The position numbers were made by a program. From a virus (Duplodnaviria > Heunggongvirae > Uroviricota > Caudoviricetes): a DNA stretch of 25,327 nt. The stretch lies in the IMG/VR virus record IMGVR_UViG_2526164664_000023; one strand, given 5' to 3'. Of the stretch, positions 9,001 to 15,000 are shown in pieces (position 1 is the first letter of the stretch; each line of letters starts with the position of its first letter).

Positions 9001-12000
9001 TTATTAGTAGGTTATTTTTGTTGCGAATAATTCGCCTTTTACGATGGCTGTTATGATATTTTTAGCAACATCTTCTGATGCGCCAACCTTGATAAGGTCA
9101 GCAAGTATTTTGTTATTTACTTCTTTCCGGTGAGCTTTATCCTTTGCTCTACGCTCTTCTTCGTCCTTGATTCTTTTTCTTCTGCTATTCTGGCTTGCTC
9201 TTTTGCTTCAGCCTCGCGCAGGATTCGTTCTGCCTCCTCCTGTGCTTTACGGCGTTCTGCTTCAATTGCCGCATGCTTTTCTCTTTCAGCTCGTTCTGCT
9301 GCCTCTTTTGCTTCGCGCTGTGCTCGTTGCTCGGCTTCAATGCGTTCACGCTCTGCACGTTCCTCTGCGGCCTTAGCTTCTGCTTCTCGCCTTGCTGCTG
9401 CTTCAATTTCGGCTTTTGCCTTTGCTTCGGCTTCAGCTCTGGCTTTCTCTTCAGCTTCTCTTTTTAAGCGTTCTTCATGCTCTCGCTTTTCCTGCTCCGC
9501 TTTGAGTCTTGCCTCTTCTCTTTGGCGGTCAAATTCGCGATCCATCAAAATCGCTATTTCATGGTCAGACTCAATTTGCTTTGCGAGAGCTTCAGCTGCT
9601 GCCTTAGCTTCTTCTTCGGCTTTAATCCGCGCCTGTTCTTCCTCATAATCAGTAAGAGGCTGGCGCGCCTTGGCTTTCAGTTCATCAAGGCGATCGCGCA
9701 CTGTCTTGCGGTTAGCATCAATTAGCTTTGGAATTTCCTTCAGTTCAGCAACAAGGTCTTTGCCAAGACCATCGAGATATGTTTTCGTCTGCGCAACTTT
9801 ATACGCCAGATAAGCGATCTCCTTTCTGCCCTTTGCCGTTGTGATATCAGGCACAAAGGACATAACTTCACGTTCAACCTTTTGAAGAATTTCTTCAATC
9901 TGGTCGGCAGACTAAATTACAGTCATTGCATTTGCTTTTTCAATAACAACTAAATCTGTTACTTCACTCATATATCCTCCGTCAAAAAATTGCCCTCACA
10001 CTGGAGGGCAAAGAAGATTTCCAATAATCAGAACAAGTCGGCTCCTGTTTAGTTACGAGCGACATTGCTCCGTGTATTCACTCGTTGGAATGAATACACA
10101 GTGCAGTGTTTATTCGTATGCCTGTCTTTTAACCACATCAGGCTCGGTGGTTCTCGTGTACCCCTACAGCGAGAAATCGGATAAACTCTATTCACCCCTA
10201 CAGAGAGAATGATGGAGATTCACCGATGAGTAACTGGTGGCAGGAACTATTACGTTTCTTCCTGCGTGGTCTTACGCTACAACAGTTAATTCATATGCTT
10301 ATTATTTTAATTGCCTTGATAATAATCACCCCAGCATCAATTAAAGAGTGGGTAGATATAAGGAACCCCGAAATACTTCCAGATCACTGGATGTATTACG
10401 CAATGCTTTTGTGTATCAGTTATGTTCTGAACAGGGGGATGGAGTTTATATTTCTGGCATCTTCAGACAGATATAAAAAATATCTCAGTAAGAGAGATGA
10501 GGCTAAAGTAATTGTGGAGACTGAGCGCCTATTCAATTCTCTGAGTATTCAGGAAAAAGAGGTTTTAGCATTTGCTGTTATGGCAAATAACAAAATCGTA
10601 CTTAAGCACGGCGATCCGGTCGCTTTATCTCTTATGAGAAAAGGCCTTCTCCATCGCTCAGGTGTGACTTACAGCGCGTCAGGTAAAGAGAAATTTGTTA
10701 TACCTGACGTCTGGTTCCATGAGTGTTATATGCGCTTTGCTGGTAAAGCTGATGAGCTAATTTAGTTCCTCTACGGCGGGGGGGATCGTCACCTCGCTGT
10801 CAGTTGTTTTGATTTCCGGTAGCCTGCCGCGTAAATGGCTACGTTTGGAAGACAAGTTGAACCTTCATATTTTCTGGTCAACGTTGTCAGAGTTATAACT
10901 TCTGCTCTCATTGCTGGTTTGCGCTTGCATTGCAAGACCACTCGTGAAGGGGTTGGCCTGTGTAGCTTGTCGGAGCTAATCGCCTCCTGACTTTGCAGGT
11001 TTGCGCGACGAGCTCTACGGCGAGAAGCTGCGGTGCCTTTAAATTCTGTTTTTCTGGACATAGATTCCTCCCGAATAAACTTTGGCGATGCAATCTCGAA
11101 GCTCCTCCTGAGACGGTTACTTCGGCATTGCATCCCACAGCTTATGTGGTTGGGTGATCTGGCTTTTCAGCCACGTAGTCGAGTGTTCGACGTTGTTTAA
11201 AGAGCCTGCCAGTCTGCTCCGTTTGGCTTACAGCGTCCTGCTGATGAGTTGACTTTATCGAAATGATAAACTGATGGCAATAGCAAAATGATAAATTGTT
11301 TGGGTTTTCAAATATCCTGTTGATTATTATGGTTTTTTATTTGATTGCGGGAATTTATCAGAAGGAATGAAGAGACTTGAGGGGGATCAGAATTTCGTGG
11401 TTTAGAAAGTTGTATCTATCAATTTTTCAATAAATACAATTGGTTAAGGTGTTATTAGGTGTGGGGATCGTGAGGCAAAGAAAACCCGGCGCTGAGGCCG
11501 GGTTCTGTCATCTAACTTAAGTATCAAGCCGCTTTTTGTGAATGATTGATGTGAGCTTCAAAGTCGCGGCGTAGATTTTGAACGCGCTCTACACATCCGC
11601 GCATTTCAGCCAAAAGCTTACTAACGGCAGTATAGTCAAACGCTTTAGTCATTTTTTTTCCCCTCGTTTAAATGTAAGGCTCAACATCAAGGGCTGCTAT
11701 TGCTGCGCACAATGCGTCAGGATCGTCAGCATCGATGGCTTGAGCCAGGTCATTAGCCAGTATAAGTAACTTATCGATGACAGCGATTTCGCTGGTCTTA
11801 TCTACACGAAAGTATGGGAGCAGAGCATTACATACGTCTCTGAATGTCCGTAATTCTGCGACAACGTTCGAAAAGGTAGGATCTTTCTTACGAAGATCCA
11901 CCAATGGCGCTACTTTAGCTGTTTTCAGCATTGCACTAATCTCGCCAATCATTGTTCCATGCAGACGATTAAATTCATCAACAGCTCGGTCATGCAAGCT

Positions 12001-15000
12001 CTTGTTGATTGGCAATACGTTTTGGGTCACTAACTATACTCCTTATATAGGTGTTCGCCAACAGATTTTCAATATGACTTGGGCGATTTCTGAACAATAA
12101 GCACGATTTAGCAATGATTAATTGATGTTAAGCACAAATATCTCTACATCGTGCATTTTTAACTATTTATACACATAAAATCTAATAAATGGATATAAAC
12201 CTTATGATGATTTTTCTCAATCGAATTGAATAATGATCTCTATCACATCACCCAAACGTCTCTTCAGGCCACTGGTTACCAGCTATGTGACGATGAAGTC
12301 ACGAACTTTTCAGCCACTCCCTTGCCTCGATGTCATCCAGATGGCGAGATTGCTTCAGAATACCAGCCACATACTCCACCTTTGCTACTTGATGATAAGG
12401 CAACGTTATTGGCCTGTGGTCCTGGTTGATGCTTGTAAATTGGTATTCTCCATCTCTGTCATAGCCAAGAACTTTGATCATGTTGTGTCCTTCAACAGTT
12501 CTGACAAACACCTCATCCCCCGGGAATACTTTGGTGTTAGGCTCAATGAGTACATATTCTCCTGATTTTATTCTGGGCCACATGCTGTCTCCTTTCACAC
12601 GAAGACCAAAGGCATCTGGATCATCGCTATAAATATTGAGCCACCCATCGCGCTCTTCGGTCATCTCGATGGCACCATCAACACCAAGAATTGCCTCACC
12701 AACCACGCGCACTAACCCTTTTCTTACCTGACCGACAAAAGTTAAAGAATCTGAGCATGATGCAATTGGTGTTACATCATGTACCAAATCAAGCCACCCA
12801 TTAGGTAACCCAAGTGCGGCTTCGAATTTTCTTGCTAGTTTATCCCCTATGTTTCGAGTGCTTTTTTCACCGGAGACTTGCGTGAGTTGAGAAGGGCTAA
12901 CTCCAAGCTTATCGGCAAAGCTTGCATTAGTGTTACCCGCGATTTTTTTATGCTCATCTAGCAAAAACGCCAGATTCGATTTGCGAATATCTTTGTTTTC
13001 CATCCCACGATTCTCCCTCTATTTAGCAAATGGATAAATATGCATTTTGATAAATCTTCATTGCGTTTTATTTATCAAAATGGTAAAGTCGCTCTGTGTG
13101 ATAAACGGAGGCACTAATGAGTAATGAACTACTACGCTGGCGAAAAGAGGCTTCTAGTGAGGAATGGAAGCGACTCGCCGCATTAGCGAATACTTCAGTT
13201 GGCTATCTTGATCAGATTGTATATGGGTTTCGAAGAGCTTCCCCAGATAAAGCGAATGCAATCGAAGAAGCCACTCGTAATTTCACGGGTTATAAACCTG
13301 TGAAAAAGGAAAATCTGGTGTTCGTATCGCGTAGAGCATCAGCAGCATAAGTAACCCCGCTCTTTGTAACAACGGACATTCGTCCTACGTCGCTGAAAAG
13401 CGAGTTCCAAGATATCTGACCAACTAAGGCCATATGCGTTTCCACGCATACCTTTCAACTAGCTATTCACTATTGGAAATCTTAAGAAATGGAACAAACA
13501 AGTTACAGCAAACTATCACAGCGTGATGTTGATCGCGCAGAAACAGATTTACTTATCAACCTGTCAACGCTTACCCAGCGCGGTCTGGCAAAGATGATTG
13601 GCTGTCATGAATCGAAGATAAGCAGAACGGACTGGAGATTTATTGCTTCGGTCTTGTGTGCTTTCGGAATGGCATCAGACATCAGTCCGATTAGCAGAGC
13701 TTTTAAGTATGCGCTTGATGGACTCACCAATAAAAACGCCCGGTGTGCAAGACCGAGCGTTCTGAACAAATCCAGATGGAATTCTGAGGGAATTACTGGA
13801 TCAATCCACAGGAGTCATTATGACAAATACAGCAAAAATACTCAACTTCGGCAGAGGTAACTTTGCCGAACAGGAGCGTAATGTGGCAGATCTCGATGAT
13901 GGTTACGCCAGACTATCAAATATGCTGCTTGAGGCCTATTCAGGCGCAGATCTGACCAAGCGACAGTTTAAAGTGCTGCTTGCCATTCTGCGTAAAACCT
14001 ATGGGTGGAATAAACCAATGGACAGAATCACCGATTCTCAACTTAGCGAGATTACAAAGTTACCTGTCAAACGGTGCAATGAAGCCAAGTTAGAACTCGT
14101 CAGAATGAATATTATCAAGCAGCAAGGCGGCATGTTTGGACCAAATAAAAACATCTCAGAATGGTGCATCCCTCAAAACGAGGGAGGTTCCCCTAAAATG
14201 AGGGACATCCCTCAAAACGAGGGAAAATCCCCTAAAACGAGGGATAAAACATCCCTCAAATTAGGGGATTGCTATCCCTCAAAACAGGGGGACACAAAAG
14301 ACACTATTACAAAAGAAAAAGAAAAGATTATTCGTCCGAGAATTCTGGCGAATCCTCTGACCAGCCAGAAAACGATCTTTCTGTGGTTAAACCGGATGCT
14401 GCAATTCAGAGCGGCAGCAAGTGGGGAACAGCAGAAGACCTGACCGCCGCAGAGTGGATGTTTGACATGGTGAAGACCATCGCACCATCAGCCAGAAAAC
14501 CGAATTTTGCAGGGTGGGCTAACGATATCCGCCTGATGCGTGAACGTGACGGACGTAACCACCGCGATATGTGTGTGCTTTTCCGCTGGGCCTGCCAGGA
14601 CAACTTCTGGTCCGGTAACGTGCTGAGTCCGGCCAAACTCCGCGACAAGTGGACCCAGCTCGAAATCAACCGTAACAAGCAACAGGCAGCCGTGACAGCC
14701 AGCAAACCAAAACTCGACCTGACAAACACAGACTGGATTTACGGGGTGGATCTATGAAAAACATCGCCGCACAGATGGTTAACTTTGACCGTGAGCAGAT
14801 GCGTCGGATCGCCAACAACATGCCGGAACAGTACGACGAAAAGCCTCAGGTACAGCAGGTAGCGCAGATCATCAACGGTGTGTTCAGCCAGTTACTGGCA
14901 ACTTTCCCGGCGAGCCTGGCTAACCGTGACCAGAACGAACTGAACGAAATCCGCCGCCAGTGGGTTCTGGCTTTCCGGGAAAACGGGATCACCACAATGG

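Follow-up and report, generated by a model that had tools for sequence, protein, structure and literature searches.

A paired small-gene cassette in the rexAB slot of a lambdoid Escherichia coli prophage, a candidate exclusion or abortive-infection module

The virus record IMGVR_UViG_2526164664_000023 (Caudoviricetes) was analysed over its whole length of 25,327 nucleotides (nt), which is called the window here. The window is a lambdoid prophage of a Shiga-toxigenic-type E. coli. Between its cI-type repressor gene and N it carries a cassette of two small genes, designated A and B, the subject of this report. On the minus strand the order is cI, a 268-base-pair (bp) spacer, A, a 15-nt gap, B, a terminator, the PL/OL region and N. 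An earlier note on this DNA had described open reading frames (ORFs) of 120 and 42 amino acids (aa) on the cI strand and had proposed a module against other phages; both ORFs are present as described. The cassette and its immediate flanks consist of the following features:

12299-13003, minus strand: cI-type repressor, helix-turn-helix (HTH) plus S24 peptidase (Pfam Peptidase_S24, 3.8e-16; phrog_4)
12248-12298, minus strand: C-terminal fossil of another S24 repressor, reading LHRHIAGNQWPEETFG up to a stop codon (..NQWPEETFG-stop), directly after the cI stop
12031-12247, minus strand: AT-rich non-coding leader/regulatory region, which travels with the cassette
12072-12044, minus strand: promoter-like element P1, TTGAAA-17-TATATA
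12033-12061, minus strand: second, overlapping promoter-like element, TTGGCG-17-TATAGT
11668-12030, minus strand: gene A, 120 aa, 13.2 kDa, pI 4.9, GTG start, AAGGAG Shine-Dalgarno sequence 8 nt upstream
11524-11652, minus strand: gene B, 42 aa, ATG start, own GAGGGG Shine-Dalgarno sequence, 15 nt after the A stop
~11477-11505, minus strand: intrinsic terminator and downstream slot boundary, 9-bp GC-rich stem, 6-nt loop, TTTTCTTT tail
11252-11300, minus strand: PL/OL region (context), TTTATC-N5-GATAAA operators overlapping TTGCCA-17-TAAAGT, upstream of N
10789-11061: N (Pfam N_peptide, 5.6e-32)

A and B are real genes and make up a conserved, obligately paired mobile unit. In each of the 37 loci examined B came 6-20 nt after A, one of them being a distant member whose A has 37% identity, and a natural A-B fusion was not encountered within the family. 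The ratio of nonsynonymous to synonymous substitution rates (dN/dS) was ~0.05 for A and 0.07-0.4 for B, i.e. both genes are under purifying selection, and the pairwise identities of A and B were correlated (r = 0.87). In a profile search of 1.8 billion protein representatives the A family comprised 36 clusters at 50% identity, nearly all of them stand-alone proteins of 105-150 aa. Named members come from Escherichia, Citrobacter, Enterobacter, Pantoea, Hafnia, Serratia, Xenorhabdus, Proteus, Providencia, Atlantibacter and Dickeya. Genome comparison showed that the cassette region is 100% identical to prophages of the O103 strain RM8385, of several O26:H11 strains and of others; at least 80% of the cassette stretch was found in 89 of 5,426 complete E. 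coli genomes (~1.6%), mostly Shiga-toxigenic E. coli (STEC) of the O26/O103 type. It is very improbable that A and B are non-functional, hitch-hiking ORFs or annotation artefacts. Such a suspicion could arise from the brevity of B, from the absence of known domains and from the 20 small gaps or indels that separate the window from the RM8385 prophage over ~20 kb. Against it stand the strong selection on both genes, the invariable pairing across genera and the identity of the cassette region to many finished genomes. In addition, the protein motifs are kept down to 25-40% identity and the structure models of A and B, described below, are confident.

Neither protein could be assigned to a characterised family. 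Profile searches returned only PHROG families with unknown function, phrog_13858 for A (5e-73) and phrog_12503 for B (2e-26). Matches were absent from Pfam, NCBIfam, PADLOC, BFVD and the PDB, the latter queried by single sequence and by profile; Pfam gave nothing at E<=1 and the PADLOC-DB v2 defence-system models 0 families at E<=10. When 31 family members were each run against Pfam, no match was obtained either. RefSeq names A and B hypothetical proteins in the identical E. coli prophages, as does every source consulted, and no mention of either was found in the literature by accession, UniProt id or PHROG id. A is not a member of the RexA family (BLASTP against lambda RexA, E=40; no RexA match in Pfam or PADLOC). 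Similarly, B is not a RexB: BLASTP produced no alignment, and the protein is a single amphipathic helix of 42 aa. Both defining proteins having been tested, the cassette is not a RexAB member. This agrees with the earlier note, whose author recognised neither protein and saw no resemblance to RexA or RexB. A BstA/KilA-N-type domain, or any other Pfam domain, is missing from A and B; its position downstream of the repressor the cassette shares with bstA. Known families or folds of type II toxin-antitoxin (TA) systems, including a DNA-binding antitoxin, were not detected in A or B. The Gifsy-1 isrK-orf45 locus was considered and judged unrelated.

AlphaFold2 (AF2) modelled A as a helical bundle, with one helix long and the other three shorter, at a predicted local distance difference test score (pLDDT) of 82 and a predicted template modelling score (pTM) of 0.72. 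In fold comparisons it resembled only generic three- or four-helix interaction modules (BAG/GAT/spectrin-like). The family alignment displays conserved GEISxML..AKLxP and PSF motifs, and conservation is highest at the C-terminus, ..AIAALDxxP-[Y/F]-[I/V/L]-COOH. Conserved positions are mostly hydrophobic or structural, and a catalytic constellation is not visible in this alignment. Alignment and fold suggest that A is a binder, i.e. a non-enzymatic helical-bundle protein. B was predicted to be a single amphipathic helix (residues 7-41, pLDDT 90) with a heptad-like hydrophobic stripe; Asp6, Leu14 and Cys20 are invariant. By hydropathy a hydrophobic segment of the membrane-spanning type is absent from A and B, and the maximal Kyte-Doolittle value of B in a 19-residue window was 0.34. 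Models and hydropathy thus support the expectation of the earlier note that both proteins are soluble and alpha-helical.

The C-terminus of B is conserved in a peculiar manner. All 22 full-length homologues end with Ala-Ala (KAA, QAA or LAA), and the preceding ~10 residues are hypervariable, the most variable part of the protein. At the distant metagenomic locus L041, where A is ~37% identical, the downstream B ends with KKAA. In a random-tag screen in E. coli a terminal Ala-Ala was critical for potent C-terminal degrons, and degradation depended on ClpXP (PMC10862746). Judged by its tail, B is likely a ClpXP substrate and hence would be short-lived.

A separate observation concerns the middle of gene B. 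Its central 75 nt (window 11545-11620, minus strand) are 100% identical in the window, in an Enterobacter locus (L004) and in a Serratia locus (L005), while A in these loci has a dS >1. Recombination, i.e. gene conversion, is the simplest reading; alternatively, there may be a constraint at the nucleotide level, e.g. like aba, the self-immunity DNA element of BstA. ORFs on the opposite strand that overlap B and the last part of A (e.g. 11578-11769, plus strand) were set aside as putative by-products of nucleotide conservation.

The cassette occupies the place that rexA and rexB have in lambda. A query composed of the cI 3' end plus the terminator and OL flank, run against E. coli genomes, matched sequence annotated under rexB in lambda lysogens. 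In one such lysogen (L040), with the order cI, rexA, rexB, the match starts at the last 4 nt of rexB, and from the terminator onward the window is ~90% identical to the lambda sequence starting there. The hairpin itself, AACCCGGCCTCAGCGCCGGGTTTTCTTTGCC, is identical in lambda and the window. Because the terminator corresponds base for base to that after rexB, the slot is homologous to the rexAB slot, beyond mere similarity. The rexAB position next to cI, as claimed in the earlier note, is therefore real, with cI upstream and lambda-like sequence downstream. The same is true for its Rho-independent terminator. Folding of the 61 nt that surround it gave -16.7 kcal/mol, and its T-tail and its identity to the lambda hairpin are in line with this; a simple terminator pattern scan of the window did not list the hairpin. 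The terminator after rexB is presumably tIMM on the lambda map. By its sequence, the terminator that closes the cassette belongs to the phage backbone; in lambda it closes the cI-rex operon. After B, 8 of 10 other representative loci have a similar CCCGGCC..GCCGGGTTTT hairpin, and in locus L006 there is another kind of GC hairpin, likewise with a T-run.

The content of the slot is exchangeable. The Stx1 phage AU5Stx1 has a cI of 97% identity, and its homology to the window extends up to 12247 and resumes from 11504. Between these shared flanks it carries an unrelated insert of 338 bp. Thus, the variable cargo corresponds to 11505-12247. Behind a near-identical cI, strain E2865 encodes the toxin HigB together with an HTH and a hypothetical protein, and ETEC4085 a P63C-domain protein; O157:H7 shows the 933W-type Stk arrangement, composed of DUF3024, a hypothetical protein and a Ser/Thr kinase. 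Further cargo consists of a 47-aa ORF and, in lambda, rexAB. This comparison across lambdoid prophages demonstrated that the cI-N slot is a cargo hotspot which includes known exclusion or TA genes (Stk, HigB/HTH, rexAB). The interval has been described as a hotspot of mosaic diversity, shared by rexAB and bstA (PMC8585504). An insertion between conserved backbone genes that is absent from homologous phages characterises a so-called moron, and in this respect AU5Stx1 and the other cargo behind cI place the cassette in this category. It is probably an autonomous accessory operon expressed in the lysogen.

The upstream boundary of the slot is marked by the stop codon of the fossil repressor end, exactly where the AU5Stx1 homology ends. 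Intact repressors with a C-terminus resembling the fossil (..QWPDDTF, ..QWPEDTF) precede the cassette in Pm34, a temperate Proteus phage, and at loci L025 and L031. A comparable remnant precedes the cassette in the Enterobacter locus L004 (WWPDETFG-stop) and in L036. This junction suggests that immunity modules were swapped by recombination within the repressor genes and that the downstream cargo was retained.

The HigB-type TA system, bona fide cargo behind cI in E2865, raises the question whether A and B are a plain TA addiction module which secures the persistence of the prophage, or of the slot, in the chromosome and does not act against other phages. Two small, tightly linked and co-evolving genes, one partner possibly labile, would be in keeping with this. 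Yet A and B resemble no toxin or antitoxin family, a DNA-binding domain that could provide autoregulation is missing from both, the conserved residues of A are not of an enzyme-like kind and the gene order is atypical for type II systems. We regard an addiction module as improbable.

For the wider context 11 distinct representative loci were surveyed; L041 was looked at in addition. In 7 of the 11 the cassette immediately follows an S24 repressor in the same orientation and precedes an N-like gene. These repressors are of several unrelated specificities and belong to Enterobacter, Hafnia-type, Proteus and other prophages. In L005 the cassette follows an Arc/TraY-like repressor divergent from a Bro-N antirepressor, next to a tail gene, in a P22 immI-like region. 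It adjoins tail genes in L035 and L036, in the former also an antirepressor, and the neighbouring ORFs in L006 had no Pfam match. In L041 it is placed between a tail-fibre-like gene and an integrase. The mobile unit consists of the leader, A, B and the tIMM-like hairpin; in L004 and L036 the fossil repressor end is also part of it. Among 50,697 phage records only Pm34 carries the cassette, and from plasmids it is essentially absent. Slot and moron contexts, together with the restriction to temperate phages and prophages, are as expected of a moron under selection for being expressed in lysogens.

These contexts and the conserved termini bear on another explanation, a regulator of the prophage life cycle centred on a protease. 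B would be a competitive substrate or decoy of ClpXP, comparable to CIII of lambda with FtsH, and A its adaptor or stabiliser. They would affect the stability of ClpXP-controlled phage or host proteins, e.g. O-type replication proteins or antitoxins, and in this way lysogeny maintenance or induction. The invariant Ala-Ala of B and the invariant free P-Y-I of A suggest docking to a machine that reads C-termini, and the cassette is consistently tied to repressor genes, albeit of several unrelated types. Antirepressor genes adjoin it in L005 and L035, and the window phage encodes a Rha/KilAC antirepressor. Small helical regulators that are protease substrates are established in lambdoid phages with CIII, and RexB reportedly has an anti-ClpP role. 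On the other hand, the cassette is freely exchanged among phages with different repressors and replication modules and also resides at tail-fibre- or integrase-adjacent sites, which argues against a function tied to the circuit of one phage. Furthermore, a single 42-aa substrate at prophage levels would hardly saturate ClpXP. On balance such a regulator appears unlikely.

The leader of the cassette was examined for regulatory elements. The spacer 12031-12298 has 33% G+C compared to 46% for the window; from the cI stop 226 bp lead to the -35 hexamer of P1 and 268 bp to the start codon of A. The AT-rich spacer of about 225 bp between cI and the promoter in the earlier note was thus accurate. The leader is 70-90% identical to those of L004 and L036 (~75% for L036), although A and B of L036 are only ~49% identical as proteins. 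The simplest reading of a leader similarity in excess of the protein similarity is recombination; by analogy to the aba element of BstA, a function at the nucleotide level may also be involved. Rfam yielded no match in the leader. As to a conserved RNA structure, RNAalifold gave only a 6-bp AU-rich hairpin around the Shine-Dalgarno sequence without covariation, and the candidate was dropped.

P1 agrees with the consensus at 9 of 12 positions and lacks the conserved T at the last -10 position. It was not picked in a consensus promoter scan of the window and, taken alone, does not exceed chance, since 18 of 100 shuffles contained at least one match at <=1 mismatch. Therefore, the earlier note overstated its case in calling the promoter near-consensus. 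The element is present, however, and it is conserved across homologues. TTGnAA and (T/C)ATA(T/C)A hexamers are spaced by 17 nt in 9 of the 11 representative loci at A identities of 42-90%, with varying spacer sequences; exceptions are Pm34 with 15 nt and L033, where the block lies ~60 nt upstream of the ATG. The overlapping element, TTGnnn-16/17-TATAGT, is likewise conserved, and the distant L041 has a canonical TTGTAC-16-TATAAT ~45 nt upstream of the start. The block TATATAAGGAGTATAGTTAGTG (window 12028-12049, minus strand), which includes a near-palindrome CTATA-N7-TATAG around the Shine-Dalgarno sequence, is nearly invariant in members with 42-49% A identity and thus outdoes the conservation of the protein. 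Its distance from the ATG in L033 indicates that it is not only a ribosome-binding site. Hexamer conservation, L033 and L041 together lead us to conclude that a putative promoter directly upstream of A is a family trait.

Beyond the cassette and its flanks, these features of the prophage are relevant:

1-1284, minus strand: host ybhC, at the window start
1419-2489: lambda-type integrase with arm-binding domain, following ybhC
10226-10765, plus strand: sieB superinfection-exclusion gene, adjoining N
13117-13350, plus strand: cro, divergent from cI
17516-18238, plus strand: Rha/KilAC antirepressor, in the nin region

The succession of ybhC and a lambda-type integrase places the prophage at, or adjoining, the classical lambda attachment region. 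A cIII gene is encoded elsewhere in the window. An IS3-family insertion sequence is situated in the early-left region (3582-4845; ORF 3984-4802, plus strand, transposase with rve and HTH_21 domains); this segment of ~1.26 kb is missing from the RM8385 prophage, which is otherwise 99.8% identical. A 248-aa ORF at 9117-9863 (minus strand) with Glu, Ala, Lys and Arg repeats had no Pfam match; in RefSeq its RM8385 homologue figures as a pseudogene ('TolA') interrupted by a stop codon. In place of the single 939-nt replication gene O of RM8385, the window has two ORFs that overlap (13820-14443 and 14269-14757, plus strand). In view of the small indels against RM8385 some ORF calls elsewhere in the window are unreliable, and the split O gene and other frameshifts may be assembly indels instead of real pseudogenes. 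Between the nin region and Q, on the opposite strand, is a gene for an LpxR-family lipid A deacylase (19284-20243, minus strand), which looks like a host-directed moron. Two overlapping ORFs on the plus strand code for a NanS-like sialate O-acetylesterase domain (SASA, 23266-23838) and DUF6645 (23826-24740); the RM8385 homologue is annotated as frameshifted by RefSeq.

With LpxR and the NanS-like esterase the prophage carries other host-directed morons, and the cassette might also be a lysogenic-conversion cassette. It would alter host physiology, e.g. stress tolerance, colonisation or transcription/sigma-factor activity, by protein binding and be unrelated to defence. The moron architecture, the enrichment in prophages of STEC O26/O103-type and the fold class of A, which is typical of binding modules, fit such a role. 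However, the family is spread over many Enterobacterales and Morganellaceae of different lifestyles, it prefers the slot in the immunity region, whose known occupants are mainly exclusion genes, and neither A nor B has a secretion signal or a membrane segment. Conversion is consequently a rather remote prospect.

Our preferred, though tentative, interpretation by analogy is that A and B may be an exclusion or abortive-infection pair expressed in the lysogen which follows a toxin-antidote logic with a labile B restraining A. Transcription would proceed both by read-through from the cI promoter and from the promoter-like element of the cassette and would end at the tIMM-type terminator. A would be a stable, acidic protein whose C-terminal P-Y-I tail is free for docking. 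The hydrophobic heptad stripe of B, we infer, packs against A in a complex and holds A inactive. A superinfecting phage which halts the gene expression of host or prophage, or which disturbs ClpXP, would shift the B:A ratio. Freed A could then bind a host or phage target by protein-protein contacts and infection would be blocked, either by exclusion or by abortive infection. The candidate module of the earlier note is thus sustained in part, by slot homology, by the hotspot and by the mobility of the unit; homology to defence, toxin or antitoxin families does not back it.

Several points weigh against an exclusion or abortive-infection pair. In the databases searched, A and B are similar in neither sequence nor fold to a known defence, toxin or antitoxin protein, so that the functional assignment rests on position and analogy. 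A toxic activity is not recognisable in the sequence of A. The gene order, large gene first and small gene second, is the reverse of that in most type II TA systems. Degradation by ClpXP requires a terminal Ala-Ala, but the motif alone does not suffice (PMC10862746), and the antepenultimate residue in most B tails is Lys or Gln instead of Leu; B may therefore be only weakly unstable or even stable. Finally, the -10-like hexamer of P1 abuts the Shine-Dalgarno sequence of A. A start near 12037, ~7 nt downstream, would leave a 7-nt leader devoid of it. Such transcripts would lack the ribosome-binding site of A and may not translate it; B keeps its own Shine-Dalgarno sequence on any transcript starting there.

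The last point bears on how the cassette may be expressed. Neither a terminator scan nor folding revealed a terminator between cI and A. Hence, the cassette is no less likely to be transcribed by read-through from the cI promoter than from its own promoter. Read-through would likely supply the Shine-Dalgarno sequence of A, as is the case for rexAB in lambda, and the two routes together could set the A:B ratio. Constitutive expression from an own promoter, as envisaged in the earlier note, is accordingly uncertain, even though the element is conserved.

A new two-protein prophage immunity system is conceivable, if doubtful, in which the trigger is the proteolytic stability or the supply of the ssrA-like-tailed B and the effector is A, which would engage a machine of the host or phage via P-Y-I. 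The highly conserved DNA block at the start of gene A might be both a promoter and a BstA/aba-like self-immunity element.

How does an exclusion pair of this kind compare with known systems? With lambda rexAB the cassette shares the slot by homology of both junctions, i.e. a cI-type repressor on one side and on the other the identical terminator followed by PL/OL and N. In the cassette, too, there are two genes on the cI strand, here with a 15-nt intergenic gap, probably co-transcribed with cI and served by an additional, internal or own promoter, and the proposed dependence on the ratio of two products would be analogous to that of RexA:RexB. Unlike in position, there is no similarity in sequence. 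A has 120 aa and RexA 279 aa; B is a soluble helix of 42 aa, whereas RexB is a polytopic inner-membrane protein of 144 aa. As neither A nor B has a membrane segment, the ion-channel mechanism of RexAB cannot apply.

BstA, which consists of one much larger protein with a KilA-N-type domain, acts by abortive infection, with the aba DNA element for self-immunity. The bstA gene of the Salmonella prophage BTP1 lies directly downstream of the prophage repressor, is highly locus-associated and has its own terminator (PMC8585504). The cassette is likewise downstream of a repressor and closed by a terminator. Moreover, a DNA block just upstream of A and covering its first codons is more conserved than the protein, and its position is reminiscent of aba. 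In contrast to aba, the block is most simply explained as promoter plus ribosome-binding site. The Stk kinase cassette of 933W-type Stx phages and the HigB/HigA-like TA system are alternative cargo of the same hotspot behind the same or nearly the same cI. Yet they are a Ser/Thr kinase and an RNase-type toxin with an HTH partner and as such unrelated to A and B, which show neither catalytic nor DNA-binding signatures.

Type II TA systems with protease-labile antitoxins are alike in being small two-gene operons with a likely degron, here on B, with co-inheritance and correlated divergence. They differ in family homology and in the DNA-binding antitoxin domain, both absent from A and B, and in that the putative labile partner is encoded second in the cassette. 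Lambda CIII, a 54-aa helical protein, is an inhibitor and a substrate of FtsH. B is also a very small amphipathic-helix phage protein, and its biology possibly centres on an AAA+ protease as well. However, CIII is an early gene for the lytic/lysogenisation phase in the PL operon, while B is part of a lysogenic operon, has a partner protein and bears a ClpX-type rather than an FtsH-type signature.

The cI-N interval is the oldest known home of prophage defence, with rexAB, and is now recognised as a hotspot which also accommodates bstA and stk. The cassette is a compact (<0.8 kb) cargo of this slot, widely distributed in Enterobacterales and wholly uncharacterised. Even if A and B do not serve defence, their invariant free C-termini, Ala-Ala on B and P-Y-I on A, are two easily mutated handles for finding their partners. 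If they exclude phages, they would add a defence system made of only two tiny, non-enzymatic helical proteins. This would be a simple model for protease-gated sensing of infection, relevant to phage therapy and to the competition between prophages in pathogenic E. coli.

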